From Cyanidioschyzon merolae (lineage: Eukaryota): a stretch of DNA of 64,000 bases. Each line of letters opens with the position of its first letter. Position 1 is the stretch's first letter. Location: assembly GCA_000091205.1 (NCBI GenBank), contig AP006496.2. One strand, written 5' to 3'. Shown here in pieces: positions 2,216 to 64,000 of the stretch. The notes beneath the pieces are model-generated. The model did not search any database. It saw only the letters and a list, made by a program, of their open reading frames with translations, and was not told where the DNA came from. Made by a program: the position numbers and the translations under genes.

Positions 2216-2548
<333 letters not shown>

Positions 2549-3154: not shown

Positions 3155-3508
3155 TTACTCGCCTTTGGCTTTCTTCTTCGGGAGAAGCACTGCGTGGATA
3201 TTCGGCAACACGCCGCCAGACGCAATGGTCACGTCCGCCAGGAGCTTGTTCAGCTCCTCGTCGTTGCGGATCGCCAGCTGGATATGACGCGGGATGATGC
3301 GCGTCTTCTTGTTGTCGCGCGCAGCGTTGCCCGCCAGCTCGAGAACCTCGGCGGTCAGGTACTCCATGACTGCAGCGAGGTAGACGGGCGCGCCAGCGCC
3401 GATGCGCTCCGCGTACCCGCCGTCTCGCAGGTACCGGTGGACGCGCCCCACCGGAAACTGCAAACCTGCTTTGCTGGAGCGTGACTTTGCCTTGCCCTTG
3501 GGCGCCAT
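3155..3508 (-). CDS. H2A: Histone H2A (copy 1)
   Basis: C-terminal 117 aa of ORF 3155-3790: [90 protein letters not shown]... matches the H2A core. ATG at 3506-3508. The upstream ORF extension is not credible. Confidence 0.93.
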
Positions 3509-26660: not shown

Positions 26661-27994
26661 AGCGGGAGCTGAAAACGCGCAAACTCCCGGCGACTACCGC
26701 GATCGTTCTCAGTGGAGGGTCTGCTGCACTCGACATGCTCCATTCGGGCAATGCAGTCCATCGTCTTTGATCGATAAAACGTTTCCGTACTGAGCACGGA
26801 GTACAGACTGCTCGCTTGATATCAGCAATCGGAAAAGTATCTATCAGTCTTCATCCTACCTTCAAGTTCTATGACGTATACGTCCCTTCCGAGATCATCA
26901 TCATTTCGTACGTTCTGTCGAGCGCCGAGCCTACCTAGTGCGCCCGCAAGTGCACCTGGCGCATCCCAGCCTACGCGCTAGTCAGAAGCGCAGGCGTCGC
27001 CTCGTCGCCACTAACGGGACGTCGTGAGACGCCTCGTGTAGAAGGCAGAAGGCTGCTGAAGTCGGACTTGAGTCATCGCAGCGATCGCTACCGGTACAGG
27101 GTGCGTCTCCGCTTTACACGAAATGTGGGTAGACGGATCGAAGTTTCCTGACCTGTTCCCCAATCTGAATTTTACGTACGGTACCTGTTTTACCACGGAC
27201 AGCATTGCAATCCATCATTCTTCTCTCGAATCGAGCGCTCTGCGCTTACGCACGCAGCGAATAGAGCACTCGCTGAGAGGATCGCTTAGAAGAAGCCCAC
27301 GATCACTGACTACAGCCCAGAACACCTCAATGCGGAAGGGGGTATCGATTGGAGCCCCCTGTACTCGTCCAGGGCATGATGCGAGCGATGAAACAAGTGT
27401 TCACGCGCTAAAAAGCCCTGCCTTTGTGATGGAGGAGGAGGAGGAGGCGGTGAATTTTGCGCCGTATCGACCGGTGGGAACACCAAACCACAACCAAGTA
27501 TGACTGCTTCGAAGCACACACCGGGCTGTTTACAAGAAAGATGAAAAGCGCGAGCGAAGCGCAGATCACAGAATCCATCCACGCACGAAATGCGTCAATA
27601 ACGCCCGGAAGCAGCGATGTCGGGACGTGAACGCTACCGTCAACATCCCTCGACTGCTGCCAACAGAGCTACATTGAAAGTAGAGACCGCCTTATTTTTC
27701 AGCCGAATAAAAGAGCGTGGAAAATGAAACACTCGTCTTCAAGTCCGCAAAGGATGGTATAGATGAACATAGAAAAAGACCCTAACGTGAGCGTCTACAC
27801 ACCCGAGTTCCTGGATACGTTCTGTTTCATTCCCGCGAGGATGCGCAGACCCCCATACTATGAGTGCTTGTACATCGCCGTTCGCTTGTGAGGCGCCCGG
27901 CACCAGAACTCCGCACCCAGGAGGCGTCGCTCTCTTGTAAACGAACCGCTCATAGCGTCATCGTCCTCGTTGCCACCGTTACACGACGCCATAG

Positions 27995-36566: not shown

Positions 36567-37940
36567 AGCTTTCACGAACTTTCAGATCGGAAGCGAGTCA
36601 TGCGAAAAGTTTGCGCTTTGCGTCCCCGTATCGAGCTGGTGAGTTCGCTGCGGCACGCGACGCGTCTGTGTTTTTTCTCGGGGGCGCGGGGCAAGCGTCT
36701 AGGATTGTTTACACGAATAAGAGAATCCGTCGTTGTGCGATGGATATCAGCATCAAGGAGAGCAGCAGCGATCATTGCGGAATTCAGACGTCCACGTACC
36801 TCGAATCACCACTAGCCACACTCTTCATCGCGTATAATGGATCGTTCATACGGTCGCCCAGGTGCCGAGTGCGTTCTGTGAGCGTCCAGTGTGACGCCTT
36901 TAGAGCCGGTGCAGACGCCGCACGCAGATAGAGCGGCTTTTGCGTACCACTGAGGGCGTTGGCTCTAGAACTGTCATCTAGTCGAGTGCAGGTACAGCGC
37001 GCTCGTTTCTGCCGCGACGAGCGCGCTCCTTTCGGGAACTCTGTCTGCACGCTTGCAGGTGCTGCCCAGCCTACGGAAGCTAGATATCATGAAGGGACGA
37101 TTTCGCACTTGATCATCACGCTGGTGGATGAGATTTTGCGAGACTTTGCTTTCCAGCGGGCGTCGCTGTGCATCTGGGTCTGGCGCTGCCCCAAGACTTG
37201 ACGAGGCGTCACATATGGCCGTGGTAGCTCGCCGCTGGAGCATCCACGCAATAGGAGTATGCTAGGGAGATGGCGGTAAAGGCACACCTCAGCCCGAGGG
37301 GCATTGTCGAGAGGGCTCGTCCACATCCATGTCAGAGGACGTTCATGTTTGCCATTTCGTGTTTATGCCAGTGGCGGCAGAGATGCATGACTGGGCGAGT
37401 CTCTTCAAACGACAAGGTTCGCGTGGCCTGCCGTGTAACGACAAGCGCCTGATTACACGAGTCACCAGAGGTTCCGCACCTGGCGACTCCCAACACGCAC
37501 GTGCACGAGTGGTACACCCGCATCCTCCGGGCAAACAAAGCGCACAAACGCTCATTGTACCCGGGTGTGCAGGGGCAGCAGCCGCGGTCACACGCACTCG
37601 GTGCAGTGAAACAGCGCAGGTTTCCTGTACCTGAGCGATACACCCAGAGATGGCTCTTATCGTGCGAGACAAATATCTTACGAACTCCATGTGATCAGCA
37701 AAGTACGCAAGGAAACATGGGGCACCTAGGCTCCGGGCGAAGGCCACTCAGCCGCCTCAGCGGGTGTCTTTGCCGGGGCGTCTTCCCTCGACGGAACGCA
37801 GCGTCTATTCGCATTCACCGGCACGACACCCTATTGAAGAGAAGCGCTCGCGTAGGCTCCACGCCGATAACACTCGTGATAATGTCAACGGCTGCGCAGC
37901 TAATAGCCCAGTAATGTGTGCCGCACCTGGCTCCGCTGTG

Positions 37941-38615
37941 CTACCTCTTCACCTCTATCTGCCAGAGGTCGACGTCGATGTCCACGGCACGTTCCCTATG
38001 AAACACGTACGTTGCGGGGAGATCGAAACGCAAGCGAGCGTACACCTGGGCCGTACACCCGAAACGCTCCAGCCTCCTCGATAAGTAACTGCGCGTGCTC
38101 GACTTGTGCAGAGAGTACACAAATCGGCGACTCAAGTGACATGCTACATCGAGGAAGGCGATGTCGGCGGATCGTTGTCGCGTTCCAAAGGGCGGATTAA
38201 GCACAGCGACGTCGAATGACTTTGGTGCCAATGCCAACGAGTTGGGCTGGACGTCCACCGCAGCAAACTCCAAGACTGCTCCGACGGACTGGGGACACAG
38301 TTCCCAGAGCGCTGCCGCATTGGCCCGTGCCAGCTCCAGGGCCTCGCTATCGACGTCCACTCCGAGCACGTGGTTGAGTCCAGCGAGACACAGTGCAAGA
38401 GCGAGTATTCCAGTCCCGGTGCCGAGGTCCACTGCCTGCACTGACCTCCGCTCATCTTCGTCGATGCATAGGGCAACATGGTGGGCGATTCTTGCCGCCA
38501 GATGAACCGGTGTCGTGTACTGCTCCAGGTGCACACGCGGGGACTGGAACTGGCGCCACGGAAGCTGTGAAAGCAGCGTCTCGATCTCACGAACGCTCGG
38601 CACCGAGCCACGCAT
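37941..38615 (-). CDS. METTL5: METTL5-type rRNA N6-adenosine methyltransferase
   Basis: ..AVDLGTGTGILALAL.. is the SAM-binding motif. ..VAVLNPPFGTRQ.. is the NPPF catalytic motif. ..VYSLHKSSTRSYL.. matches human VYSLHKSSTRE. The start is taken at ATG 38613-38615; the ORF track starts at a GTG at 38639. Confidence 0.85.
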   Translation of the reverse strand: MRGSVPSVREIETLLSQLPWRQFQSPRVHLEQYTTPVHLAARIAHHVALCIDEDERRSVQAVDLGTGTGILALALCLAGLNHVLGVDVDSEALELARANAAALWELCPQSVGAVLEFAAVDVQPNSLALAPKSFDVAVLNPPFGTRQRSADIAFLDVACHLSRRFVYSLHKSSTRSYLSRRLERFGCTAQVYARLRFDLPATYVFHRERAVDIDVDLWQIEVKR

Positions 38616-39059
38616 CCCAGTTCGGCAGACTTTCAGCACGCTGCGATGCCGAGTACACGTCGCTCGCAGGGCCTAGCAGGTCCGCTCCTTAAAGCCTACG
38701 CAGCGCACGCTCCAACACGCTGTTCCAGCGGACCTGTGGTTGTAATTCGGGCTTGCGGGGTGTGTCGCCCCGCTGCCGACGGTCGGTCCAGCTGCTTGTA
38801 GCACCCCCGCTACCTCCGTGGAAGCTGTTTTTCCTGCCAGCGGCGGGCGTTTGAATGAATCGTCGATAAAACACTGTCCCAGGCGCGTCGCAGTGCTCCC
38901 CAGCTGACGAGCACCCGAAGCCATTTCTGTTACCCGATGCGTCGCAGCGCTTTCGTATGGACCATCGGCGCGTTTGCTTCTAAGATGAGCATAGAGCGAA
39001 TAGATAGACTCACTCACACGCTTTCCGCAGGACTTATACGAGCGGGTGCCTGCTATGGG

Positions 39060-40460
39060 CTTTCACTCTCATCTTGTTCACTTCGAGTCTGAGAGGCTGG
39101 CCCGGAAAGTTGGCTCAAACCAGCTCCTTGGGTCTTCTACTGAGCACTGTATGTCGTCTAATGTTCATAGCAGCGTTGAAGTCTGGGATCACGAACTGGA
39201 TGCGTTTATTGTCTCTTATTAAACTCACCAATGCAAGGATCCCTCGAAATGCTGCCCTCGGTGCCATTTGGTGCTCCATCACCTCTCCAAGGTTTCCTAT
39301 TCCCAAAGTGCTCCGTTGCCTTCTCTCCATCTCGACGTTATGAAGGATACACCCCAGCACATCCATTAGATTTTTTAAACACATTTCTTTATGCCCCTAG
39401 GTGACGACCTTATAGGAGCGCGTAGGACTTGCGGAAGAAAGACGTCATGTGTCTCTGTGTACCACCGTGTTCTGAACGCTTCAGTGATTCGCCTAGTGGC
39501 GCGATCTTTACTTTTCACAATAGGAAACACTTCTTCAATGTGGTTGAACCGGAAGCGTACTGACGAATGAAATGCAGCCCTACTCCGGTAGAATTGGGCA
39601 AGGCTTCAATGCGAGGGGAATGGTGAAATTCCAAAAAGTCGAACAGAAGAACACAGCCAGACGTCAGGGAATCGTCTTCAAAGATTCTACGATGTGAAAA
39701 CTGTTGTATGAGCGTTCTCTGGAGTCGAAACTGAGGCCGCAAAAGAAATCCACTGCAGCTGGAGTAGAGAAATTCTTATGTATTTTCGATATCGATTGTA
39801 TATCCAACGGGCGCCCCTCATCGCGAATACTCATATCCACTGTGACGGTTCTGTGTGGAGCAAATCTCGTGGAATGAAAAAAACAACGTTCTTGTGGCTC
39901 ATAGCCGGCGCGATGTTTCAGGGACTGTGTTCTAGTCGCCATTTCGTTCGGACATGGCTGTGAACGATCTAGGACATTTTATGTGACTGTATGCCACTGG
40001 TTTCAGGACCATACGAAAAAGCTGTAGACAAAAACAGTCACCGGTGATGGCTGCTATCGTCGCTTTTTGTTCCCGCAAAGTCGGCAACGGGTCGTGTTCT
40101 ATCACTGACCTCATGCACGCGTCGAGAATATCCGTTTCTTTTCGCGGAGTTCATCTAATTCTTTCTCTAGTGTTCCTCGACCGTTTGAGTGTTGTTCCAT
40201 GACTGACATCAAGAATCAATACAGATCTCCTTCAAATATCCAGTATATAATATATCCTACATGAAATTCGACTTCGATATATACAGTATATTACAACGTG
40301 ATTCCCATCTCTTGCTATACATCGCAGATCGTGTCGAGTAACCATGGGTTGAAAGCCTAAAAGATCGCGGATCGCAATCCCACCACCACCGTTCTGCTGT
40401 CTGGATCGCCGAGTCGCGAACGCTGTGGAGCCACGCTGTTCAGGGACACGTGGCAGATAT
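39060..40460. other. GC-poor island 2 with frameshifted minus-strand ORF fragments
   Basis: Composition shifts to AT-rich. Three abutting minus-strand ORFs (39115-39384, 39515-39742, 39664-39942) lie in different frames. Confidence 0.5.
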
Positions 40461-46749: not shown

Positions 46750-49700
46750 GCTTCAAGAATTGGACGCCGTCTCGAGGCCTGCCTGGTGCCTGCTCCACGT
46801 CATCCGAAAGAAACCTTCACATACGTGTTCAGCTCGAATGCTGTATTCGTAGCGTCCTCCTTATCCAATGTCATAATTAGGCCGAAAGACTGATACGTCC
46901 GCCATCAAGTTCTGTTGCCCAGCAAAAGACGTTCCAGGTGGCAGAGCAGAATCGCTTGAGCAGAGCTTTATCGGCTCCAGTCACTGCACGCTGCAAACAG
47001 TATCGATTACGAAGTAGATACACTAAGTAAAATCGAATAATGGAACACCTGTATCGTCTACAAGTTGCCTAGGAAGACCGATTCCGGTGTATCTATACGG
47101 CGCTCCAGCATCACTGGATTGCTTAACCGCACTACACCAGTGCCTTGCTTCATGCTTGGATCCAAACGTTCCCTCCTGGCCGCTGTTTCTTCATCGCATG
47201 GCTTCCGATTTTCAGCACAATGCCCGCAATGACTACGACACGACTTTTTCGATACTTCGCTTAACACAGAGTCTTGGGCGCTGCAGAAGCACGAGACATA
47301 TTCCGGATGTTGGTCGAGGCGTTGAACTCCCGGTGGAGAAAGTGCTTTTGCCCATGACTGCTGGGAAATGCGCACCGCAGTAAACCTGTCACCATAGACT
47401 ACCTTGCCAGCTGACGTGCGGTCAGCTTCACGTCCACCATGTCGTACATTCGGACCTGTTCCTCTCTGTTTCTCAAGCTGCATCATCGTGCACCTCAGCT
47501 CGTGGTGCTTTCATGTCGTCCTGAACTTGTCCAAAGGAATCCTGCACAATCGGCTCCTGCATTCGTTTTACGCTCCGAGCGAAGGAGCATGAGTCCAGCC
47601 TTTGTGTTGAACAGCACGTTCAGCGTCATAGGCCATTACCAAACGACACGACGTATCGGTTATTTCCTTTTTCAACACAGTGAGCAAATTGGTGAATGCA
47701 CGCATCTTGCGAACGTGCAACCCGAAGCGCTGACGACACCAGTACGGTATCATGAACTCCTGCTAAATCTCATTCTCATATGCAATTTTGACGCTCGCAT
47801 ACTCCCTGAATCAAGTGATGAAAGTACGCCCTCTGCACGATACGGCGCCCAGAGCGTCGGCACAGGTCCGGACGGCATTCCTCAATCTGTTGGAATGTCC
47901 CGCGGCGTCTATGATGCCCAGCTGCAGATGATACTGAACGCTGGAAACCATGAGCAGCTTCCTGTGATATCCGTTCGGATCTTTGGATCCTTCATTATGG
48001 TTTGGAGGTACGTCGACGCTCATGATATTGCTGGACCTTGGATGCACGCCCACCACGAAGAGTTTCTTATCACCTACCGTGAACAGTTGGATACGACTCG
48101 CATTGTTCGACTCATGATTCGGTTTCCGATGAATTCGATGGAGATTAAGCCTTCGTTGGTCTGCAACGTTACTGTATGCTTCGTTCCGTTTTCGCCCGGT
48201 CTAGGAGAAATCTTGAGCGAGCTCTACCAATACATTTCGCGGACTCGTTTGAACTCTTCACATTTGCTTCCGGGTGTCCGCCCTAACCCGCTGAGGAGGC
48301 CACACAACATTGTAGACACTCATCTATGGCGATGTAATGAGCATTAATGTCACACATGGAAACCACATCCAAAATAAACACCAGAGGAGACGAGGACTCT
48401 CGAATTCGGGAAGGGAGTCGACCGCGCTCTGGATGGCTCTGCTCAGGAACACGTAGTGCTTCAAGATGGAATGTAGGTAGGTAGATATCACGTCTCAATT
48501 ATACATCGGATACGACGTCCGCTGGTCCGAGGCAGAGAGCAACACGATGAGCTTGGACAGCATGAAGCGTCTCTTGCTCTCGTTAACGCATCTCTTTGAA
48601 CTTCGCGACAAACTCCATCTCGTCCGTAGCCAGCAAGCCACTTGCCTACGTCCGCACCCGAAGAATCCCTTCATGTAATCCTCACTGTTCTGAGCCTCAA
48701 TAGTGACGCTATAATGACCACAGCGTGCGCTTCATGAAGCCCCGGTCATTGGCTTGAACATGGTTTTGCTTGTTGAGGTTGTTTTGAAACTTTCTGGCAA
48801 CTGCGGCGTACATGTTCCGATGGATGATGTGTAACGGCGAGGCGTCGGGGTAGTTTTGGAAGCGTGTGTACAAATCTCTAATCCTATGAACAAGCCGAAT
48901 GGCATCTTCTATCCGAAGCATCCGTTGCTGCAAGGAGGTTTGACAGAAGATTTCCTGAGGAATGCGGACAACTGGCAGCCCAGCGTCCGCAGCGCCCCTG
49001 AGCAGTTGCTTGGCGAGGTGTGTCAAGGAGAGGTAAGCATGGCGAGCTTCCGCCGAGGTGGAAGCTGCGCGAACCTCAACGGCCAGCTGCCTCATCCTTT
49101 TTGGAAGACTCACCAGCTTGATACGTTTTCTGTGGAAAGCCTCGACAACGAGTGCAGACTGATCTATCCGCTACCACAATTTTTTCTTCTTGTCCCTCCT
49201 CGCCCACTTTTCGGAAGGATCCTTCCCCTCTTCGTCTAGTGGTTTCCTCTCCCTCTCCACAAAGCGGTGTTGGTACCGATGCGGTCGATATACTTCATAT
49301 CTGTTTTTTCTCTGGGCTGAAACAGTCTCGGCGATAGATGGCAATGAAGCTCATCTATTCTGCGTGAGTGTCGATTTCTCCTGAAGCACCTCTTTGCCAC
49401 CGTATCTGCGGGCAGCGCGCTCGCGGTGCGGGGCACGCTTTCCCCTCCCTGATGCGCTCGAGCGGAGGAGCAAACCATCAGCTCAGAGCTGGTTACCATA
49501 GAAAAACACTCGTCCGAGAACGGTCGAGCGAACGACTTCTCGACTGATCTGTGAGCATGAAAGCGGAGTCTGCCGACAGAAAATTTACCTTCAACTGTTG
49601 TGGACCGAGGAGTTCAGGCTAGCACGAAGAACAGCTCACTACCTATTGCTGCAGCATACACCCAGACCGCCTTGGATCTCTACAAAGCGACGTTGTCTAA

Positions 49701-54678: not shown

Positions 54679-55167
54679 TCAAGCTGTGCAGTTCGTTGAA
54701 CTGCCAGAGCCCGACGGATCCTCGCGCAGATGACCAACTACTTCGTATTTTTGGAGAAACTTCTCAAACCACTGGTACAGCGTCTCTTTTTCGTGCTCCG
54801 TCAAATCATCAATAGCGCCACAGACTTCGCCAGGTTCCGTGCTCATCTTTGCGAGTCCTCTGCTCGCGTTCTTCCCAGCAAAGACAAAGTACGGCCCACC
54901 GGGCCCATAAAAAGACCTCGCATCGGAGACGTCGAAAACTTCAGCCCGCGCCCCAGGCCGTGGCTGTACGGCCACGTAGATCGGCTGCCCTTTTGTTCCG
55001 TTGTACTGAGCAAGCTCTTCGCCAGTGAACGCCCTCGGTGCCGGCCGTTCATGGTGCCGTGGCGGCGGCTGCACTGCAGGGTTCTCAACGTGGTTACCCA
55101 TCAAGCGAAGCGCACCCAGCACGAATACACCGCCACCCAAAAGTAACCAGAGTCCAACTGCATCCAT
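54679..55167 (-). CDS. MAPR-type membrane-associated cytochrome b5-like heme/steroid-binding protein
   Basis: An N-terminal TM segment (MDAVGLWLLLGGGVFVLGAL) precedes ..FTGEELAQYNGTKGQPIYVAVQ...VFDVSDARSFYGPGGPYFVFAGKNASRGLA.. ATG at 55165-55167. The upstream ORF extension derives from the adjacent Fanzor-like element end. Confidence 0.75.
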   Translation of the reverse strand: MDAVGLWLLLGGGVFVLGALRLMGNHVENPAVQPPPRHHERPAPRAFTGEELAQYNGTKGQPIYVAVQPRPGARAEVFDVSDARSFYGPGGPYFVFAGKNASRGLAKMSTEPGEVCGAIDDLTEHEKETLYQWFEKFLQKYEVVGHLREDPSGSGSSTNCTA

Positions 55168-55222
55168 GATAGCGTCGAAGCGTTCACCAAACGCCGTTCT
55201 AAAGTAGAACGACGCCGACCGT

Positions 55223-56422
55223 TTACAGTAGAGGAGAGAAACCCGCCCTAGACAAGAAGTCTCCAACTGATGTGCAGACGCCTCCCGTCTTTTTCGACGG
55301 GTCACCCACTACTGCTTCCAACTTCTTCTCATATAGGTCGACTTTGAGAGGTTGTCCAATAAAGTTCATTGTTGTTGACTCTGGAGGTCTCTTCTCCAGC
55401 ACCGCACATCTCCTTACATTGATGGCGGCGTTTAAGTCCCGGTTCACGAATTCCATACGTTTCGTCCCGTTGATTGTACTTACTAATGGAAGGAGTCCAC
55501 GAACTTTCGCCCTCCTTTCCATTTGCTCCTCTGCCAGCTGTCCGTACTTTGCTATTTCCTCGGGGCTCCGTTGGCACTTTTCCATCGCCACTCTCTGAAG
55601 TGTGCAACCCAGCTCGTGGTGTGTGTACGATGTTCGAAACTCATCTATAGGTATCGTGACGAAACGCCTTGCGCACTCCTTGTACGCTCTCGTCGTTGGA
55701 GCTGGTGTACACCCTTTTTGGGTCTTCCATCGCCTTGCTCCGTACGCTACTACGAGCCCTTGACGGTCGTCCTCCTTCAAGGCGCTCAACTGGTTGAAAG
55801 AATTCGCGAACGCCCGCCGCTTACCACAATACAAATTCATTCGCAAACGAGCCCACCGGGACTTGGTATACTCATCCCACAGTGCATCCCAATGAGCAAC
55901 GCGAAATTCTATGAACTCCCGAAGAGCTTTAAAGTCCGCTCCGCGGCTCGTCACCTCGCTCAAAGTTTCCAGGCGATCCTTCATTCCTGCATTCCATGTC
56001 TCGATTTTCTTCCTTGCATTCACTATATCGGATTCTCGATAGTATATTGCTCTCGAGAATCTCAACAGATGCACGTCTTTCTGACGTAAGTTGCCGTCAG
56101 TACCATCTTCCTCACGCTTCGGTGCTACGATGGTTATGATATTGGTATTCCCAGGGTCCGCGCCAACGACAAAGTCGCTATCCCGCACTTTCTGCGTCGC
56201 AGGTTCCGCCTCCTTCTTCTCTTCATGCTTCGCCGCGTAAACGATAACGTGGTTATCCTGCACTTTCTGCGTCGCAGGATCCGCCGTCTTCTTATCTTCA
56301 TCCTTCCTCACGGACGAAGCCGAAGGCGGGACTGAACGATCTGCCTTCAACCGTCGATAGTGTACACACATGGCTACTCCATCGGGTTCGATCATCCCAG
56401 TGAAAAACTTTTGCTTGATCAC
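55223..56422 (-). CDS. TnpB/Fanzor-like RNA-guided-nuclease-family protein (RuvC-I, degenerate Zn finger, RuvC-III). N-terminal REC/WED region is absent.
   Basis: [16 protein letters not shown] fits the RuvC-I GxDxGxxN motif. [22 protein letters not shown] fits the TnpB 'vdp-yTSq-C' entry to the Zn ribbon. [10 protein letters not shown] fits RuvC-III RDxNAAxNI. Only about 85 aa precede RuvC-I. There is an internal 75-bp direct duplication at about 56200-56300. The ORF starts at a GTG; the first ATG is at 56393-56395. Confidence 0.7.
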
Positions 56423-56489
56423 TTTGAGAGGTTTGAAATCGAATATATTCTTCCAGTACGTCTTCCGGTTCTTACCGGTTAACTTGCGT

Positions 56490-57326
56490 CAGAAAGACGT
56501 GCATCTGTTGAGATTCTCGAGAGCGATATACTATCGAGAATCCGATATAGTGAATGCAAGGAAGAAAATCGAGACATGGAATGCAGGAATGAAGGATCGC
56601 CTGGAAACTTTGAGCGAGGTGACGAGCCGCGGAGCGGACTTTAAAGCTCTTCGGGAGTTCATAGAATTTCGCGTTGCTCATTGGGATGCACTGTGGGATG
56701 AGTATACCAAGTCCCGGTGGGCTCGTTTGCGAATGAATTTGTATTGTGGTAAGCGGCGGGCGTTCGCGAATTCTTTCAACCAGTTGAGCGCCTTGAAGGA
56801 GGACGACCGTCAAGGGCTCGTAGTAGCGTACGGAGCAGGGCACTGGAAGACCCAAAAAGGGTGTACACCAGCTCCAACGACGAGAGCGTACAAGGAGTGC
56901 GCAAGGCGTTTCGTCACGATACCTATAGATGAGTTTCGAACATCGTACACACACCACGAGCTGGGTTGCACACTTCAGAGAGTGGCGATGGAAAAGTGCC
57001 AACGGAGCCCCGAGGAAATAGCAAAGTACGGACAGCTGGCAGAGGAGCAAATGGAAAGGAGGGCGAAAGTTCGTGGACTCCTTCCATTAGTAAGTACAAT
57101 CAACGGGACGAAACGTATGGAATTCGTGAACCGGGACTTAAACGCCGCCATCAATGTAAGGAGATGTGCGGTGCTGGAGAAGAGACCTCCAGAGTCAACA
57201 ACAATGAACTTTATTGGACAACCTCTCAAAGTCGACCTATATGAGAAGAAGTTGGAAGCAGTAGTGGGTGGCCGGTCCAAAAAGACGGGGAGGCGTCTGC
57301 ACGTCAGTTGGAGACTTTTTGTCTAG
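56490..57326 (+). pseudogene. 5'-truncated inverted copy of the Fanzor/TnpB-like gene. It lacks RuvC-I but retains the Zn-finger-like segment and RuvC-III.
   Basis: ORF 56370-57326 matches the minus copy from [11 protein letters not shown]... onward, about 99% identical. Small indels change the C-terminal frame (GGRSKKTGRRLHV against [13 protein letters not shown]). Confidence 0.6.
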
Positions 57327-57634
57327 GGCGGGTTTCTCGCCACTACTGTAAACGGTCGGCGTCGTCCGACTTTAGAACGGCGTTCGGTGTCGGTGGCCCT
57401 TTTACGAGGTTTCTTCCGACGCAACCTCCAGCTTTTGAACAGTTGACCGCGAACCGACACCCGCATCCGTTTTTTTACACAACACAACCTGAGCAAAAAG
57501 TTTGCAGAGAGTCTTACACGTTACGAAAGCGAAATATGTTGGTCCGAGCTACTTGTGCCCTGAAATCCTCGGATAATAAGCAAATACACCACGCATGGAA
57601 AAGTTGAATCTGCGTCTATTCGAACGCACTTTGG

Positions 57635-60343
57635 TTAGACATTTCCCGGGCGAGATTCGGAGCAGGCCCAGATGCGTCCAGTGCTGACATCCTGAAGCAG
57701 CTGTTGAACAGCATGGAGAACACGCGGACTTGTTGCGTGGGCTTGATTGGGACTACCAGCTGCAGCGGTGCTCGCCACGATACCAACCTGGCGCACGATA
57801 TGCTGCAGTCGCACATAGCGCCTCGCAGGGCATGCATCGCGTATAGGGAGCTGGAGCGTCGCAGCGCTTTCCAGAGAGGCCTCCGGTGGAAGCGCTCGCG
57901 CCTGCAGAAAGCGCCGAATCTTTCGTGCACGGGAGAGGATGGCGTCGGGCATCCCGTTCGCGCGGGCACAGGCCAGCGCGTAGGAGTCCAAGCAGGGCGC
58001 CCCTTCAGACAACTTGTACAGCGCGGTCAAGACCACGTCGTCGTTCTGATCTGGAGCATCACCGGTCTGGCGGTTTTCCTGCACGAGCACTTCAAGTTTG
58101 AAGAAGCGCAGCCGCGAGTTCGCGTGAGCTTGCGCGTAGAGTGTCCCGGTCACCTCATGGAAATGGGTCGCAAATAGCACCGTCATTTGCCCCGTGACGT
58201 TGGTTGCCAACTCTGAAAGCACCGCTGCCGCAAGTGCCCTTCCGTCTTCATCGGAAGTGCCTTTGCCGAATTCGTCAACAATAGCGAGCGACCTGGAAGT
58301 GGCGTACCTGAGCGTCTGCGCCATTTGGATGCAATCGTTCATGAATGTTGATGTCTCGCGGCCGGTGGAATCGAAACTCTTCACTCGGGCAAATATCCGG
58401 TCGGTCACGCCGATTCGGGCGCTACGCGCCGGCACGTAGGAGCCAACCTGTGCCATGTGTACAATCAACGCAACTTGGCGCAGAAGCACGCTCTTGCCGC
58501 TTGCGTTTGGCCCTGTGACGACACAGACATCCCCGCGCCTAACAGAGAGACTGTTAGGAACGAAAGAGTCCACGGTGAGCTCTTGAATCGGGTGGCGAGC
58601 GTCGATTACGTCGATGTGACAGGCTGATTCTGCCCCGAGGACTTGTGGACAAGTCCACTCATAGCGCATCGCAGAGAGGGCGAAGCTGAGCCAACAGTCG
58701 ATCTCTGCCAGCAAGTCGCATGTGCGACTAAGCACTGGTATCGTGGGTATCACGGCGGCCTCGAGATCTCGAATGATGCTCTTCTCGAGGTCGTTGATGG
58801 CCCCGGGCAGATCACCGAGCTCCTCATCGAGCTGACGCGTTCTGTCGTTCTTCACATATGCATCAGTATCGGTGTCGAGCGCGTGCTCCAGAGAGGCATC
58901 GGATTCCATCTGGGCAGCGTCTGAGCGGGAGATCTTCATCACATAGCCGAGGCGCGGATGAAACTGTACACAGATCGACCGCTCCGTGGCGGACGACCCA
59001 AAATACCTGCTCTTCTCCGATTGAGCCACGCTCTCGAGAAAACTGTCCAGAGATTCAAGGGCTAATCTCATATTATCAAGGTTTTCATCAAAGCCGGTCT
59101 TGACGGCTGGATTCCAGCCCGACTTGGATCCACTCATGTCGATACATGCCCCGATTCGTGTCGCGACGCTTGTGTACCATTCCGGGTCGAGCACGGGTGT
59201 CAACTCTTGCGCATTTTCTTGCAGAAAAGCGCTTCTCTCGCGCCAAACAGGCAACACGATTTGAACCAAGTCGGAGAATCCATTAAAGAGCCCCGCGACT
59301 GCCACGTTGCATCCGTGGAGCGCTGCCCAGTCTTCCGCAGTCGCTGCGCCCGAAACCAAGCGCCTCCAAAGATTTTGTGGATGATGCACAGCTTTCAGGA
59401 GCTTTCTGAACAATATCATGTCGATGCTGGCCAAGGCGCCGGCCAGGGCCTGAACCACTTCGAGACGCTCTCGAATGCGCGCAGGGTCACAGATTGGCTG
59501 CGTTAGAATCTCGCGGATTTTTCTCTGTCCGGGCGCCGAGGCCCCGAAGCTGCTAATGATCTGGTAAAGCGTGAGCCCGTGTTGATGGACTCGAGCGCCT
59601 GACCTAGGCGCGGAAACCTTGGCCGGTAGGACCCTCAGTTCTCGCAGAAGACTCATCGGCGATATAGCTAATTGCTCCATATAAAAGGGCTCTGCGCGTA
59701 CGGTGTGGATATCAACATCACAGCGCATCGCTAGAAACGACAGCAGCGCCCCTAGGCAGGTCTGCCCGACCGGCCCCTGATCATCCAATGGTGCTCGCCG
59801 GTCCGGAGACGAGCTCCCGCTTACATCTACGCTCAATTGATGCTGAGCGAAGGCGTCTACAGGATTTTGCCACCAGCGAATAGTTTCTTCTATGCGCTGA
59901 GGCGCGACATCATCCGCGGCGAGAAGAACCAGCGGCCCGCCGCCATCAGCGAGTTCGAGGCAATCGCCCAGTCCACCGGAAACGGCGGTGAGTCTTTCAG
60001 CGGGGAAAGCTTCGATTTGCTGGACTTCGCTGCGGTGCATGTCGCGGACAGCCTGTGACGCTACCCGCGTTAGCATCGCCCTGAACTCGTCGATGGCGTT
60101 TGCGGGGGTTAAAATAAGGTTCGGCTCGATCGCTCGAAGGGTGCGCTCGGTTTGCGAAAATGGCGCCGAGTCTCCTATCTCACAAAAGCGTATCACAAGC
60201 GATATCGTCGAGCACCATGCAATGCCAACACGCTGCTTCCGCACCGTCGTCATAAGGAAGATCTCTTCGCCTCCGTCAGTCTCATCGATCAAACTCTGAC
60301 GGGTTGGGGCTCCGCAACCCAGAGAATGCATAGTCGAGCTCAT
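57635..60343 (-). CDS. MSH5: MutS homolog 5 (meiotic MutS-gamma subunit)
   Basis: The ABC ATPase is ..VVTGPNASGKSVLLRQVALIVHMAQVGSYVPA..STFMNDC..LAIVDEFGKGTSDEDG.. DEFGKGT is MSH5-specific; other MutS homologs have DELGRGT. There is no N-terminal mismatch-binding domain. The N-terminus ..IFLMTTVRKQRVGIAWCS.. matches the MSH5 start. ATG at 60341-60343. Confidence 0.8.
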   Translation of the reverse strand: MSSTMHSLGCGAPTRQSLIDETDGGEEIFLMTTVRKQRVGIAWCSTISLVIRFCEIGDSAPFSQTERTLRAIEPNLILTPANAIDEFRAMLTRVASQAVRDMHRSEVQQIEAFPAERLTAVSGGLGDCLELADGGGPLVLLAADDVAPQRIEETIRWWQNPVDAFAQHQLSVDVSGSSSPDRRAPLDDQGPVGQTCLGALLSFLAMRCDVDIHTVRAEPFYMEQLAISPMSLLRELRVLPAKVSAPRSGARVHQHGLTLYQIISSFGASAPGQRKIREILTQPICDPARIRERLEVVQALAGALASIDMILFRKLLKAVHHPQNLWRRLVSGAATAEDWAALHGCNVAVAGLFNGFSDLVQIVLPVWRERSAFLQENAQELTPVLDPEWYTSVATRIGACIDMSGSKSGWNPAVKTGFDENLDNMRLALESLDSFLESVAQSEKSRYFGSSATERSICVQFHPRLGYVMKISRSDAAQMESDASLEHALDTDTDAYVKNDRTRQLDEELGDLPGAINDLEKSIIRDLEAAVIPTIPVLSRTCDLLAEIDCWLSFALSAMRYEWTCPQVLGAESACHIDVIDARHPIQELTVDSFVPNSLSVRRGDVCVVTGPNASGKSVLLRQVALIVHMAQVGSYVPARSARIGVTDRIFARVKSFDSTGRETSTFMNDCIQMAQTLRYATSRSLAIVDEFGKGTSDEDGRALAAAVLSELATNVTGQMTVLFATHFHEVTGTLYAQAHANSRLRFFKLEVLVQENRQTGDAPDQNDDVVLTALYKLSEGAPCLDSYALACARANGMPDAILSRARKIRRFLQARALPPEASLESAATLQLPIRDACPARRYVRLQHIVRQVGIVASTAAAGSPNQAHATSPRVLHAVQQLLQDVSTGRIWACSESRPGNV

Positions 60344-61888
60344 CTGTTCGATTACTTACTTTGACTCGCCGCCGACAGTGATCTCGGCTGAGCAAGAACC
60401 GGTAACCCTGCACAGAACCTGGAAAATTCTCGTCACCAACCAGATCAGGGGGCTCCTCTGAGTCCAGCACAAAACGCACAGAAAACACCAGAAAAAGCCA
60501 GTGCACCTTGGTGGACCGTGCGTGTCCTGTACACGGTCGACATGCACGCATATAAGCATGCGTGCATGCACGCATGCTTATATGCACATAATCGCGCATG
60601 AATATGTAGACATTCGCGCTCCTATGAATGCATCCATTCGTGCCTGTGTGCAAACTTTCCTGCTTGTACAAATGCATGCATTCGTGCCTGCATGAGTGTG
60701 AGCGTGCGTATATGCACACGTTCGTGCTTATATGCACATATTCGCGCTTCTGTGGATGAAACCCTGCATGCATCCGTGCATAAATACATCCATTCCTCCG
60801 TGCACGCACGCATCCATGTTTGCGTCCATGCGTGTACCCAGCGGACAGCACCGATCCTCGGTATGGGTTGCCTTGTCGAGGAGCGCTCAGCATCGCAGGA
60901 CACGTGTACCCGTGCGCAGATGCCCGAGCGGATGCCTCTGACGATCGACGCCCTACCGCCATAGATCCGATTGGAGCGCATGCATCGCAGGACACGTGTG
61001 CCCGTGCGCAGATGCCCCACGGGTATGATGTCGTGAAAGCTCGCATATGTTTAGATTCCACCTTTCATACACATGGCGACACATGAAACCGAAGAATTCG
61101 ATTCAGAAACTGAACCAGGCACATTTTAGGTTGTACAGTTTCCTGGCGTTGTCGAGCAAGTCGCGCTTTTTCGAGTGAGCGTCTTTTGGGCTCGCCTGGC
61201 AGCCACTGCGCAGCCCGCGAAATCGAAACAACAGGTGATCAGCCTACATCGCTCAGCGCGTCGCTGAATCGTGCTCAACGGGCGCTGCAACAAGTCAGGG
61301 ATTCCCGATACGATCGGGCATGCGAGTCGAGCGTTGCTGTCCAGCCATCAGCGTCAGTGCACTATCAAACACGCCTCTGGAGCAGTAGCACACAAAGGCT
61401 AGAGCTGAGACGCGCAGGCTACGCAGTTCTATGATGCTCAATCTTCGGGTGCGCTGCAGACACCTCCATCCCAAAGATGGACGTGATTTCCCCACGCCGA
61501 CGGGCGAAGGGCACTCGGGATTTTTATCATAATGGGAGATCGATGACATCGACTGGAGTCGCTCCGATGCGCAGTGCTCGACATGTCAGCGAGCGCGGAA
61601 CACTAGTGCTGCACCAGGAGCGCCGCATCGGACGCCGTCTCTCCCGATCATCGCGGCGATGGAAGCGATTCCGCTACTCCTTCGTACCTCTGTGGAGTTC
61701 GGCGACGGCGCGGGTGCGATGTGCTGCTTCCTCGGAAAGTGGTCAAATGTCGAATTTTTCATGGTCCTGCGAGTCCGTACCTCCACAACATCGCGGAACA
61801 ATGCAAGAACCCGAATCGCCTGAAAAGGGACAGAGACTCCCTGTTCAGCGCTCCAGGCGAGTCAAGTCGGAGGCGGTAAGCAGCACGT

Positions 61889-63583
61889 TTACACATCCGA
61901 CAGGAGGGCAGTCCTCGAACCGTCCGCGCGAGGGCCGGGGTCGTCCGTCTGAGCAGCCGCTCGGCGTGACCGTATGCAGCGAACTATTACAGCAGCAAGG
62001 CATAACAATAGAGCCACTGCCAGAACCAGGCCAAACAGCAAGGCCGCACTGCGCGAAACATGAAATCCAAAGATAGCGATGTCCTTAGTCGAGCCAGCGC
62101 GTGGCAACATGTCGGTCGCATTCGACGAGGTGTACACAATACCGCGATCTCCGGCTGCAGGCATTCCGCAGTTCTCTGCCGCCGGCGCGAAACCGATCCG
62201 GGAGTTCTCTCGATCAAACACTGTGACATAAGCTCGCATGAATGTGTCTCCAAGAATGACCCGTCCATTGACAAGTTCCCCCGTAACGTGCTGAATGCCA
62301 AAACAACGAAATGTTCGGCCATTTTTCTGGGCACGCAGCATATACAACTCCGGAGGAACGCTCAGTTCGACACCGCCTGCCAGCCGGATATTGATCGGTG
62401 GAAGGCGCGAAACGTGCCTGTCGGTCAGCGTTGCGCATCGACCGGTTTCGAGCCAGGTTTTTTCGCCGCATAGGCCTGGTACTTGGTCACAGTACCGGGA
62501 TTGGAGGTGCTCTCGCAATGTGCCGAAGGCGCTCGTGCTTATCACGATCAGTGTTGTGCCTGAGTCGACAATGGCGGATCGGATCTCTGGGAGACCAGCG
62601 CTCTCATCGGTGCCGAAGCGAACCGACTCGACGCCAACCTCGTAGTACGTGCGAACCGCACGATTCACCATAGGTACCCAGCGGTACTCGCCCTTGCGCA
62701 TCTCCGGGCCGGCAGCACCGCCGAACACCAAAGCCCCAGATGTGTCCGTCAAACACAGCGCAAACATATCGCGCGGGACAACCCCCGTGCGTACCATCGT
62801 GTCGAAGACTGGCGGGACACATGATGGATTACACGCCAGCGACGGGTATGCGAGACCCCAGATACCGTCCACATCAACGTGCTCAAATGATGCAGAGTCC
62901 AGGAGGATCCCACCAAAGTATGCGGGATACACTGACAACCCTGTTTGCGTAAGCGTTATACGGCCAACATGGAGCGCCCCAATGGCAAAACTGCCGTCCC
63001 CGTAAATGAGTCGAAAGCCACATGCTTTGGTGTCTACTGGAGCACAGCAGGCCTTGCTCGCTTCAGAGCACGCACCACACAGGCTATTACATGTCGACGG
63101 TTTGCAAATAGACTCATTCGAGCAGGATATGCGTGTCAAGTCGGGGTTCGCTAGAGTCACCCGACGATCGCCCTTGAGGCAGTTCTTGCACTGGCTCAGA
63201 GGAAAAGCTATTGCGGAGCTTCCTGTATCAATCTGGACGTGAACTGTCTGATTATCCACCGATATAGCAACATAGTACTCACCGACGTTCACGATTCCTC
63301 CAGCGAGCGGGTTTACGGGCAGCTTATCTTCTTGAGAGGAGCCGCCCGGGACGCCACTCACCGCTGGTCGGAGAAGCGCGGCAAGCTCGCCGTGCCTCCT
63401 TGGCGCCGAATAGATCCTTTCCACTGTTCCAGGACGCTTTTCGAGAGGCAGTACAATGCCGTCGCGTCCAGCGAGCTCTGCGACAGCTGCAGGCCCCCTG
63501 CCAAGAACCATATTGTCGAGCAGGCCTACGGCGCCTGCAAGGCAGAGGACGCTCACCAGCAATACAGCAAGCGCTCGTATCAT
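61889..63583 (-). CDS. Pepsin-like (A1 family) aspartic protease with signal peptide and C-terminal transmembrane anchor
   Basis: ..VHVQIDTGSSAIAFP.. and ..AIVDSGTTLIVIS.. are the two catalytic D-T/S-G motifs. An N-terminal signal peptide is present (MIRALAVLLVSVLCLAGAVG), and a C-terminal TM segment (ALLFGLVLAVALLLCLAAVIV). ATG at 63581-63583. Confidence 0.82.
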   Translation of the reverse strand: MIRALAVLLVSVLCLAGAVGLLDNMVLGRGPAAVAELAGRDGIVLPLEKRPGTVERIYSAPRRHGELAALLRPAVSGVPGGSSQEDKLPVNPLAGGIVNVGEYYVAISVDNQTVHVQIDTGSSAIAFPLSQCKNCLKGDRRVTLANPDLTRISCSNESICKPSTCNSLCGACSEASKACCAPVDTKACGFRLIYGDGSFAIGALHVGRITLTQTGLSVYPAYFGGILLDSASFEHVDVDGIWGLAYPSLACNPSCVPPVFDTMVRTGVVPRDMFALCLTDTSGALVFGGAAGPEMRKGEYRWVPMVNRAVRTYYEVGVESVRFGTDESAGLPEIRSAIVDSGTTLIVISTSAFGTLREHLQSRYCDQVPGLCGEKTWLETGRCATLTDRHVSRLPPINIRLAGGVELSVPPELYMLRAQKNGRTFRCFGIQHVTGELVNGRVILGDTFMRAYVTVFDRENSRIGFAPAAENCGMPAAGDRGIVYTSSNATDMLPRAGSTKDIAIFGFHVSRSAALLFGLVLAVALLLCLAAVIVRCIRSRRAAAQTDDPGPRADGSRTALLSDV

Positions 63584-63650
63584 CTAGGTTTTAAACTGAA
63601 GTTTCTGCACAGAGTTCTTGCCCTGGAACAGAATTAGAGTTTGGATCCTC

Positions 63651-64000
63651 CTAAGCGGACTTGAGCGGCAGCGCCTCGCTTCTATGCAGGGCTTGTAGCA
63701 GGCAAAACGCGCCAATACTTATTTTGTAAAACGAAAAATGCTTCGTGGACATGCAGGATAAACTAATACCGATGCGCAGACGCCTAAGAGCGTTTTTGGA
63801 CCAGTCGCCTGCTATCGGCTTCAGTTTCTCCTTGCACACTTCGAGCATCAGAGCCTGCCTCACAAAGTTGTATCGAGTCGGCTCCTGTGGTTTCATCTTC
63901 AGCACCGCACATCTTCTCTTATTGATGGCGGCGAAGTATCAGTTTGCGATCTCTTTGCATTCATTGACGCTGCTTGAGCTCACCGATGGAGGGATTCCAA
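63651..64000 (-). mobile_element. C-terminal part of a third, divergent Fanzor/TnpB-like copy running off the window end
   Basis: ORF 63651-63905 (..KMKPQEPTRYNFVRQALMLEVCKEKLKPIAGD..) aligns with ..[32 protein letters not shown].. of the 55223 copy at about 45% identity. Nucleotides 63895-63945 (cagcaccgcacatcttctcttattgatggcggcg) match 55395-55430 across the RDLNAAIN-coding segment. Confidence 0.6.

Follow-up and report, generated by a model that had tools for sequence, protein, structure and literature searches.

The Fanzor-like sequence upstream of an aspartic protease gene at the edge of a 64,000-nucleotide stretch of Cyanidioschyzon merolae DNA (the whole stretch is called the window here) is a neutrally decaying copy of a non-autonomous transposon. 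A separate tendency, real and family-wide, was found in the published Fanzor1 family CMe-1A, the right end of which abuts co-oriented host start codons. As an overall explanation it is highly probable that the sequence beside the protease gene is a dead relic whose proximity to the ATG is incidental, and that the start-codon tendency belongs to CMe-1A.

The window derives from C. merolae 10D, and its housekeeping proteins match those of that strain exactly. A giant-virus origin was rejected on the strength of these exact matches, and a kinetoplastid-style polycistronic context was rejected because genes are carried on both strands. The start codons of the protease gene (63583) and of the MAPR gene (55167) both agree with NCBI annotation, and a MutS-homologue gene, whose MutS domains are recognised by Pfam, is convergent to the second CMe-1A copy with its stop at 57635. 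The relic sits in a 3.3 kb spacer full of decayed repeats that is flanked by two tandem aspartic-protease paralogues. Rfam searches of the window returned only spurious miRNA matches, in a low-complexity tract (60531-60744).

Table. Fanzor-like copies in the window, their component parts and the neighbouring host genes.
Feature	Position	Strand	Evidence and remarks
Decayed composite-repeat copy, 3′ part (DDE_3 transposase remnant, then internally deleted Fanzor1 gene); the relic	63673..64000	-	Family-model nhmmer covers 63999-63673, E 3.8e-90
CMe-1A-homologous segment of the relic	63768..63953	-	CMe-1A consensus nt 2904-3092, Fanzor1 C-terminal residues ~673-728; blastn 70% over 190 nt
Inactivating changes in RuvC-III of the relic	63936..63941	-	Frame translation against family alignment and CMe-1 consensus
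84-aa ORF	63651..63905	-	ORF list; Fanzor C-terminal homology over codons 1 to ~52, then read-through
Spacer from end of repeat homology to protease ATG, ~89 nt	63584..63672	-	nhmmer extent; not repeat-derived, no CMe-1A right-end similarity
Aspartic protease gene (‘pepsin A precursor’, membrane-anchored)	61889..63583	-	BAM81293 / XP_005537329, 564 aa; exact NCBI match; Pfam Asp 2.3e-39
CMe-1A copy 1, 5′-truncated	55192..56484	-	Consensus nt ~1945-3169; blastn 87%; tblastn to CMe-1 78%
Terminal stem-loop of copy 1, 9 bp	55192..55213	-	Fold of copy 1
Spacer between copy 1 and MAPR, 24 nt, TTTGGTGAACGCTTCGACGCTATC	55168..55191	-	Right-end alignments
MAPR gene (membrane-associated progesterone-receptor-like cytochrome b5 protein)	54679..55167	-	BAM81291, 162 aa; exact NCBI match; Pfam Cyt-b5
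CMe-1A copy 2, 3′-complete	56481..57382	+	Consensus nt 2262-3169; nhmmer; tblastn to CMe-1 84%
Divergent broken Fanzor1-like relic, near full length	47204..49230	-	tblastn 26-35% aa identity to CMe-1; family HMM hits
Second composite-repeat copy in the window	38907..40300	-	Colinear alignment and nhmmer; next co-oriented ORF ~290 nt downstream

The relic runs past the edge of the window to ~65135, that is for about 1.1 kb more, as seen in locus L001, which shares 99.7% identity with the window and carries the sequence further. An earlier note on this DNA had seen homology between the 84-aa ORF and the C-terminus of copy 1, and this is borne out by 50% identity over 46 aa (E 3e-12 pairwise, 1.5e-8 by tblastn in the window); the ORF also aligns to residues 222-279 of the 281 of copy 2. 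The relic matches the Fanzor family HMM at positions 395-450 of 453 (E 4.5e-14) and the published CMe-1 consensus protein at 50% over 56 aa (E 7.7e-10, tblastn). In blastn searches it matches the CMe-1A consensus at nt 2904-3092 only, and the family HMM found no further Fanzor homology upstream of this C-terminal segment in L001.

A complete RuvC-like nuclease of the CMe-1 lineage carries three catalytic residues, the D of GADPGN, the E of VDEFRTS and the D of VNRDFNAAIN. The relic is without RuvC-I and RuvC-II, and its RuvC-III, VNRDFNAAIN in the family, reads AN*YF-AAIN (N-stop-Y), with an in-frame stop at the Arg position (63939-63941) and a Tyr in place of the catalytic Asp (63936-63938). 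Because of these two changes, and because no right-end hairpin is recognisable, the stretch, judged by its sequence, encodes no nuclease. Neither nhmmer nor local alignment detected the last 77 nt of CMe-1A, comprising the 3′ UTR and the terminal hairpin, in the relic; over the 184 nt that precede the protease ATG the alignment to this right end was not significant and no better than shuffled sequence, as 14 of 500 shuffles reached its score and the match was not colinear. As the right-end hairpin cannot be recognised, it is most likely that the relic produces no omega-RNA.

In the relic the family stop codon maps to ~63750-63752; the ORF continues to 63651 by read-through, and blastp alignment of the 84-aa ORF to family members stops at residue ~77. 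The description of this copy as 3′-complete in the earlier note thus fails on the RuvC-III stop and Tyr, on the overrun of the family stop and on the undetectable last 77 nt of CMe-1A. The note’s distances of 67 nt (stop 63651 to ATG 63583) and 55 nt (stop 55223 to ATG 55167) are correct as counted, but the relevant boundary is the end of the element, which lies 24 nt from the ATG for copy 1 and ~89 nt for the relic. The 67 nt is an accident of the ORF, since the ORF overruns the family stop.

The relic belongs to a composite repeat of ~1.5 kb, in which a Tc1/mariner-type DDE_3 transposase remnant is followed by a Fanzor gene without residues ~50-640 (~590 codons). It is colinear with the second copy in the window (38900-40400, minus strand) and with two further loci (L025 and L044), at 66-71% identity over ~1.5 kb. 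One deletion junction occurs in at least four colinear copies, including the one at 38907-40300, and the four-copy family consensus joins the Fanzor N-terminus MGMEVED..GP.SPAAGK to ..VAQRARVLG..VNRDFNAAIN. The junction being common to at least three other colinear copies, a complete Fanzor ORF was probably never present at the locus of the relic. In the four-copy consensus the DDE_3 domain (PF13358) scores 57.8 bits with E 1.5e-15, above the cut-off of 28.6, and spans positions 4-140 of the 146 in the profile; the copy at the relic’s locus alone scores 26 bits (E 9e-6), and a weak HTH_33 match lies upstream of DDE_3 in the consensus. No terminal inverted repeats (TIRs) were found in three composite copies, nor were TA duplications, the ends of the element being poorly defined. 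At least seven copies were recovered by nhmmer. The earlier note’s view of the relic as a separate subfamily and not a recent duplicate stands, for another reason: the existence of a distinct DDE_3 and deleted-Fanzor family with a common junction. The window holds two more Fanzor-like relics (38907-40300 and 47204-49230).

The Fanzor part of the relic comes from the CMe-1 protein lineage, with the N-terminus MEKEVEDPGGPVSPAAGKK and the C-terminus VNRDFNAAINIRRCAVL, whereas the DDE_3 region upstream, the ~590-codon internal deletion and a different, non-alignable 3′ end set it apart from CMe-1A. The composite family resembles PUl-1 of Pythium ultimum, a Mariner/Tc1-type Fanzor1 element with 24-bp TIRs, TA duplications and intact ORFs (PMC3627910), in that a DDE transposase ORF precedes a Fanzor1 ORF on the same strand and the DDE motifs match (DETSF .. 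LLLDN..HHS .. YS..NPIE). Unlike PUl-1, it shows no TIR or target site duplication (TSD), both of its ORFs are broken and its Fanzor is internally deleted. A Tc1/mariner-associated Fanzor1 is not known to have been listed for C. merolae. The ancestor was probably a Tc1/mariner-type element in which an HTH and DDE_3 transposase preceded a CMe-1-lineage Fanzor1 gene; a derivative without Fanzor residues ~50-640 was later copied to several places. The DDE_3 and Fanzor composite suggests a Tc1/mariner-type transposon as the original carrier of the CMe-1 lineage.

Chance most likely accounts for the ~89 nt gap between the relic and the protease ATG, as the other copies of the composite family show no gene-start bias. 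Of seven copies, one has a co-oriented ATG no more than 100 nt away, in a sample too small to exclude a weak bias; the seven downstream neighbours comprise three co-oriented genes at 89, 291 and 1163 nt, three convergent genes, and one case in which the copy abuts another transposable element. A working or recently working divergent Fanzor, with an omega-RNA overlapping the 3′ end of the ORF and a guide read from the 5′ end of the protease gene, can hardly be entertained at this locus: the C-terminal homology is genuine, the frame is open to 63651 and the protease gene lies on the same strand, but only ~60-80 C-terminal codons are left, RuvC-I and RuvC-II are absent, RuvC-III carries the stop and the Asp-to-Tyr change, the internal deletion is common to the relatives, and neither the right-end hairpin nor the CMe-1A 3′ UTR is detectable. 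The omega-RNA and flank-derived guide that the earlier note had envisaged find no support in the relic, where the CMe-1A right end and hairpin are undetectable and the catalytic residue has gone; for copy 1, which has a stem-loop right end 24 nt before the MAPR ATG, they could formally apply. Co-option of the 3′ part of the relic as a promoter or 5′ leader of the protease gene, which would explain its survival beside the ATG, is somewhat easier to imagine and still improbable. The shared strand, the short distance, the identical arrangement in six near-identical strains and the right-end/ATG adjacency of the related CMe-1A family are in keeping with it, but other copies of the composite family show no such adjacency, the entire 3.3 kb spacer consists of decayed repeats and the 89-nt spacer is not derived from the repeat. 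Retention among the strains is uninformative, since they are 99.7% identical, and no empty site was found at the protease locus, the relic being present on every protease-bearing contig.

CMe-1/CMe-1A is a published Fanzor1 family of C. merolae with a consensus of 3,169 bp and a protein of 734 aa (Bao & Jurka 2013, PMC3627910). About 150 copies are described there, without TIRs or determinable TSDs and of unknown classification, and the position of CMe-1A relative to host genes is not addressed (PMC3627910). The Fanzor-like copies of the window are members or derivatives of this family. Copies 1 and 2 are plain CMe-1A members (87-88% to the DNA consensus; 78% and 84%, respectively, to the CMe-1 protein) with the same 3′ end ...TTTTGAAAGGCG; they form a head-to-head pair with an inverted repeat of 98.2% identity (55185-56092 / 57389-56481). 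The ORF of copy 1 (55223-56422) has all three RuvC motifs (D-E-D) and a frameshifted tail, and its right end was placed at 55192 by a 77-sequence alignment and nhmmer. Copy 2 is without RuvC-I through 5′ truncation. Between its right end and the 3′ end of the MutS-homologue gene, which it faces, lie 252 nt, and this 3′-complete copy beside a convergent gene was overlooked when the earlier note spoke of both 3′-complete copies as lying upstream of start codons. The junction of copy 1 with MAPR is repeated in the orthologous locus L007, the only retrieved locus that overlaps the window, and in eight independent contigs; no empty MAPR site was found, the element being present on every contig with the exact MAPR protein.

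Orthologous Fanzor copies differ by 71:191 synonymous to non-synonymous substitutions, distributed 98/91/116 over the three codon positions. In-situ selection on the Fanzor ORFs was rejected, since the substitutions between orthologous copies look neutral. Searches of Pfam, NCBIfam and PDB sequences (for PDB, both a single protein and a family profile served as queries) gave no TnpB/OrfB, Fanzor or Cas12 match; Fanzor-like homologues carry PF26935 only, a family outside the Pfam set searched here. The putative membership of CMe-1 in the TnpB/Fanzor superfamily rests on the published alignment. Modelled with AlphaFold2 from 45 aligned family sequences, P0025 reached a mean pLDDT of 40 and a pTM of 0.27, values too poor for fold comparison.

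At the right end of CMe-1A, conservation falls sharply 56-63 nt after the stop codon (56 nt to the published end at 57382, ~63 nt to the drop in the alignment at 57385-57392). The terminal stem-loop of copy 1 is a candidate for the 3′ stem of an omega-RNA or for a cis-element of transposition. Among 43 CMe-1A copies, 60% have a stem of 7 bp or more within their final 40 nt; the figure is 12% for shuffled sequences and likewise 12% for flanks. At least five different stem sequences are represented. RNAalifold on 44 right-end regions returned one invariant 3-bp stem only, folding z-scores of the whole right-end region are unremarkable (median -1.0), conservation of the 3′ UTR does not exceed that of codon position 3 or synonymous sites, and Rfam gave no informative match for the right end. 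If an omega-RNA is made, the 24-nt spacer TTTGGTGAACGCTTCGACGCTATC would be the flank equivalent to a guide; RNA-guided, TAM-dependent DNA cleavage by CMe-1 is a putative activity. Set against TnpB/IS200-IS605 OMEGA systems and characterised Fanzors (Saito et al. 2023, PMC10432273), copy 1 is similar in its RuvC D-E-D residues and in having, at the boundary of the element, a non-coding 3′ end that is conserved and closes with a stem-loop. CMe-1 differs in matching no TnpB/Fanzor profile or PDB sequence and in a Zn-finger region that is not canonical CxxC..CxxC, and the relic has none of the OMEGA- or Fanzor-like features of copy 1.

A census of Fanzor-like copies, proposed in the earlier note, was run on metagenome contigs of C. 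merolae-like populations rather than on the reference genome, with the 80 best-scoring 3′-intact copies and with genes called as the longest ORFs from the first ATG. An excess of CMe-1A near co-oriented ATGs emerged: at 17 of 43 distinct loci (40%) the first ATG of a co-oriented gene lies no more than 100 nt downstream of the right end, where random-insertion nulls predict 4-20% (p 3e-3 to 1e-11), so that the enrichment under the most conservative null (20%) is about 2-fold (p = 0.003). The right-end neighbour is co-oriented at 32 of the 43 loci, and five convergent genes end at a stop codon no more than 50 nt away from this end of the element. Left ends are near an ATG in none of seven full-length copies and in 2 of 24 overall, well-defined left ends being available from only eight full-length copies. 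All eight ORF starts tested gave exact database proteins, seven of them of the same length as in the 10D annotation, and the junctions recur in independent assemblies for most multi-member groups. The genes for ATP synthase beta, PCCB (BAM80995) and GGPPS (BAM80451) each have a CMe-1A element 16-95 nt before the ATG. The earlier suggestion of insertion near gene starts is thus upheld, as a matter of position, for CMe-1A and not for the family of the relic (1/7).

Insertions of the P element, Mutator, mPing, Tf1 and Hermes are also enriched just upstream of coding regions, a preference that is usually independent of orientation and spread over hundreds of bp. The CMe-1A bias differs: it concerns the right end alone and the sense orientation, and the distance to the ATG is often 16-60 nt. 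It probably arises from orientation-dependent insertion into, or survival in, a short region just upstream of start codons, and sense transcription leaving the 3′ end of the element would keep the host gene expressed. We tentatively propose, at somewhat less than even chances, that CMe-1A is placed or kept in sense orientation directly upstream of host start codons, so that a putative omega-RNA would read as its guide the start or 5′ leader of a housekeeping gene, with the 3′ end of the element lying in the host leader or promoter.

As to the cause, two readings are equally possible, each being rather doubtful when taken singly. Strand-specific targeted integration into promoter-proximal or 5′-leader DNA, for example through a motif or through single-stranded or open DNA at transcription starts, would account for right ends, but not left ends, being enriched and biased in orientation; the full-length copies all lie between divergent genes, and a pyrimidine-rich ‘TGATTT..’ tract precedes their left ends. 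This tract may equally be unrecognised element sequence, however, CMe-1A is without a known transposase or target duplication (PMC3627910), and the interval between right end and ATG holds no common motif. Alternatively, insertion may be unbiased and the surviving copies may be those in which sense transcription from the 3′ end keeps the downstream gene expressed, by donation of a promoter or by read-through. Adjacency in sense orientation only, with all 17 cases within 100 nt co-oriented, and the tolerance of an element so close to the ATG by the housekeeping genes named above point this way; so does the neutral decay in place of the Fanzor copies, because of which the Fanzor protein is not the retained trait. 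Against this, selection alone predicts tolerance and not an excess over a uniform null, five convergent genes end close to the right end, and the 3′ UTR is not conserved above synonymous sites. An artefact of short intergenic regions, first-ATG calls and the sampling of assembled 3′-intact copies is unlikely. The most conservative null already predicts 20%, intergenic medians are only 260-500 nt, and the six full-length copies with both neighbours known lie at 1-58% of the gap (mean ~30%), a modest skew; yet the excess is significant even under that null, the starts tested equal NCBI annotation in seven of eight cases, the right/left asymmetry occurs inside the same elements, and the junctions of most multi-member groups are reproduced in independent assemblies. 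If the proposed sense placement of CMe-1A is true, it would mean either strand-specific integration coupled to transcription starts or systematic donation of promoters or leaders by a Fanzor-bearing transposon in a compact eukaryotic genome.

The relic beside the protease gene is ordinary and functionally unimportant, and recognising it as a dead fragment guards against the mistaken idea of a third Fanzor guided to a host gene. The modestly novel lead lies in the CMe-1A bias. Unclassified since 2013, CMe-1A gains a candidate classification through its DDE_3-linked relative. C. merolae can be transformed by homologous recombination, and the orientation-specific link between right end and start codon, found at 40% of 43 loci including the essential gene for ATP synthase beta, is a testable clue to the integration, persistence or transcription of Fanzor1 elements.

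CMe-1A, the element beside the MAPR gene, belongs to a Fanzor1 family described from Cyanidioschyzon merolae by Bao and Jurka in 2013 (PMC3627910). Its Fanzor-like protein has no match in Pfam, NCBIfam or PDB sequence searches, and 261 relatives were found in metagenomes. For CMe-1A, the 2013 study counts about 150 copies that are each about 80% identical to a 3,169-bp consensus, and it gives no TIRs, no determined TSDs and no classification (PMC3627910). Copies 1 and 2 of the window were compared with the supplementary consensus DNA and 734-aa protein of that study (PMC3627910), and match CMe-1A, so the family had already been published as Fanzor. The same authors list only one Fanzor1 family for C. 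merolae; a nearly full-length, broken Fanzor1-like relic in the window is a further divergent lineage. The first ~250 nt of CMe-1A, which match three short fragments, are part of a separately reported ~635-bp element, TE-N2_CMe. Copies 1 and 2 are arranged head to head as an inverted pair. Five other loci (L013, L028, L044, L066 and L068) also carry such pairs, with inner breakpoints at similar positions (consensus nt about 2093 / 2262), so the palindromic dimer may itself be a multicopy unit. Breaks in assemblies tend to fall inside the dimer. The rest of the window is intron-poor and ordinary, with both strands coding (ArgRS, SerRS, TGT, RIO2, a MutS homologue, a PrimPol-like gene and others).

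Elements, host genes and other features of the window
Feature	Position	Strand	Remarks
CMe-1A fragment	8983-9160	-	matches first ~250 nt of CMe-1A
CMe-1A fragment	26773-26947	+	matches first ~250 nt of CMe-1A
CMe-1A fragment	36864-36968	+	matches first ~250 nt of CMe-1A
Methyltransferase-like ORF	37941-38639		judged by eye from sequence; next ORF co-oriented with second composite copy, start about 290 nt downstream
Second composite copy	38907-40300	-	DDE_3 transposase and internally deleted Fanzor
Fanzor1-like relic	47204-49230	-	26-35% identical to CMe-1 over residues 27-723
MAPR-like cytochrome b5 protein	54679-55167	-	BAM81291, 162 aa; exact C. merolae 10D match; Pfam
Inverted pair, copies 1 and 2	55185-57389		909 bp arms, 98.2% identity
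Copy 1	55192-56484	-	87% DNA, 78% protein identity to published consensus
Copy 2	56481-57382	+	88% DNA, 84% protein identity to published consensus
Low-complexity tract	60282-61061		CA/TG-rich; long spurious ORFs on both strands; weak sub-threshold Rfam miRNA-family matches
Aspartic protease	61889-63583	-	BAM81293, 564 aa; exact C. merolae 10D match; Pfam
Flagged copy	63673-64000	-	decayed Fanzor-like relic

The flagged copy upstream of the protease gene is a dead relic. Its ORF, 63651-63905(-), is present and shows homology to the Fanzor C-terminus in its upstream half (50% identity to copy 1 over 46 aa; E 4.5e-14 against positions 395-450 of 453 of the family HMM), and the copy has 70% nucleotide identity to CMe-1A consensus nt 2904-3092. 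The earlier note gave correct stop-to-ATG distances for the protease (67 nt) and MAPR (55 nt) genes; its description of the copy as 3'-complete does not hold, nor is the C-terminus intact. The RuvC-III motif VNRDFNAAIN reads AN-stop-YF-AAIN directly upstream of the ORF, the family stop codon aligns at about 63750 in a frame that stays open for ~33 codons beyond it, and a search of the 184 nt that precede the protease ATG did not find the final 77 nt of CMe-1A, its 3' UTR and terminal hairpin. In speaking of both 3'-complete copies, the note also left out copy 2, which is 3'-complete with its right end (the element end 3' of the Fanzor ORF) 252 nt from the 3' end of the convergent MutS-homologue gene.

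The surroundings of the relic can be followed past position 64000 in L001, a metagenome contig with 99.7% identity to the window, where the family HMM finds no further Fanzor homology upstream, and a DDE_3-type transposase remnant lies 220 nt further upstream. The ~1.5 kb block is colinear with window 38900-40400(-), L025 and L044 at 66-71% identity, and nhmmer finds at least 7 copies of this composite family. A four-copy consensus encodes an HTH region, then a DDE_3 domain (Pfam 57.8 bits, E 1.5e-15; motifs DETSF .. LLLDN..HHS .. YSTCFNPIEGVF), and a Fanzor start, MGMEVED..GP.SPAAGK, homologous to the CMe-1 N-terminus, which after about 50 codons is fused to ..VAQRARVLG..VNRDFNAAINMRR.AVLK.. 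and a C-terminal tail. The copies have in common an internal Fanzor deletion of roughly residues 50-640. The flagged sequence is thus one copy of a non-autonomous derivative, and the view that it represents a separate subfamily and not a recent duplicate was therefore right in substance. This locus probably never carried a complete Fanzor. Judged by its domains, the parent appears to be a Tc1/mariner-type element carrying a CMe-1-like Fanzor, the architecture known from PUl-1 and other oomycete elements. TIRs and TSDs of the composite element were looked for and not found; by nhmmer its homology extends to near 63673, which leaves about 89 nt to the protease ATG. A tandem paralogue of the protease gene lies 3.3 kb upstream, beyond the window edge (L001 5296-6723 and 10001-11695), and the spacer is packed with decayed repeats, the relic among them.

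The right end of CMe-1A was located by aligning the 3' regions of 80 related loci with the window copies. Conservation drops from about 0.75-0.9 to about 0.3-0.45 at 57385-57392 in copy 2, equivalent to about 55185-55192 in copy 1; two independent lines agree with this boundary, the limit of multi-copy blastn coverage and the terminal bases given in the published consensus, ...TTTTGAAAGGCG. This puts the right end of copy 1 at 55192, with 24 nt between it and the MAPR ATG. Some copies at different loci share 10-16 nt past the consensus end (GTGGTGGCTTGTCCAT, TTGTTTCCAGGGG, TGTTGGTGCG; L020/L041, L026/L073/L076, L021/L032/L084), which means that in some subfamilies the element extends further at its right end and lies even closer to ATGs.

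The last ~25 nt of CMe-1A fold as a stem-loop. An uninterrupted stem of at least 7 bp occurs in the last 40 nt of 60% of 43 copies, compared with 12% of shuffles and 12% of flanks, and its sequence varies among copies (e.g. GCGTCGTTCGA.. and AACGTTTTTC..). RNAalifold recovers one invariant stem of 3 bp, 3' UTR conservation is not above that of third codon positions, and Rfam returned nothing for the candidate omega-RNA. Apart from the terminal stem-loop, the case for the 3' end as omega-RNA is weak. In the Fanzor model, the omega-RNA has its 3' flank as guide (PMC10432273); the guide-equivalent of copy 1 would be the MAPR 5' leader, a consequence of position that says nothing about function.

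The position close to gene starts that the earlier note described is supported as a pattern for CMe-1A and is not seen as a trend in seven copies of the flagged copy's composite family. The 80 loci are 3'-intact copies from metagenome contigs that represent C. merolae-like populations, and grouping by flank identity left 43 distinct insertion sites. Genes were called from ORFs, the longest non-overlapping ones on the downstream side of a right end being taken as its neighbours. In 32/43 loci the first of these is co-oriented (binomial p = 0.002 vs 0.5); a co-oriented first ATG is found no more than 100 nt from the consensus end in 17/43 (40%) and no more than 60 nt from it in 13/43 (9, 16, 19, 20, 24, 27, 40, 40, 41, 42, 42, 52 and 56 nt). 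From intergenic intervals of the same contigs, the expected co-oriented, within-100-nt fraction is 4-9% if insertion is proportional to intergenic length and 14-20% if every interval is equally likely (p from 1e-11 to 3e-3); the most conservative of these nulls leaves an excess of only about two-fold. The genes next to the right ends are ordinary host genes, some named by eye from translated ORFs (ATP synthase beta, phosphoglucomutase, phosphoserine phosphatase) and others confirmed by database names (PCCB, GGPP synthase, PTH2, a PEP-translocator-like transporter); all 8 neighbour ORFs looked up are exact proteins in the collection, 7 with the same length as in the NCBI 10D annotation. Starts are not the only gene ends found close by: in five convergent genes the stop codon is within 50 nt of a CMe-1A right end. 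The composite family shows no trend toward co-oriented ATGs, its downstream neighbours being co-oriented at 89, 291 and 1163 nt, convergent in three cases and, for one copy, another TE that it abuts.

The bias may arise from strand-specific targeting of promoter-proximal DNA, or insertions may persist only where their sense transcription continues into a host gene. Left ends were anchored on consensus position 1 in eight full-length copies; the upstream neighbour, known for seven, is always a divergent gene with its ATG 187-2006 nt off. An ATG lies within 100 nt of 0/7 left ends vs 5/8 right ends of these copies (Fisher p = 0.026), and of 2/24 vs 17/43 overall (p = 0.01). A pyrimidine-rich tract lies in the 60 nt before position 1, in many cases with TGATTT about 10 nt upstream (L009, L025, L029, L032, L034, L037, L056, L063), which would be either a target (TAM-like) motif or an unrecognised element extension. 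Among paralogous copies, conservation is about 0.73 at codon position 3 vs about 0.88-0.92 at positions 1 and 2, as would be expected if the protein was under selection during family spread. Orthologous copies at the same locus in different populations differ by codon position as 98/91/116, with 71 synonymous vs 191 non-synonymous codon changes; CMe-1A copies appear to decay neutrally in place, and the resident Fanzor protein is not what keeps the elements beside start codons. In two orthologous pairs (L013 vs L058, L028 vs L062) the Fanzor ORFs differ at 25-45 per 843 nt and the unique flanks at 0-4 per 300 nt, which suggests ectopic conversion among copies or chimeric repeat assembly.

The start-codon bias is unreported in PMC3627910, in the Auxenochlorella paper (the two papers of the searched library that name both Fanzor and Cyanidioschyzon) and in the further Fanzor literature surveyed. 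The position of the flagged relic near the protease ATG is best read as incidental; the adjacency of copy 1 and the MAPR gene reflects a real property of CMe-1A.
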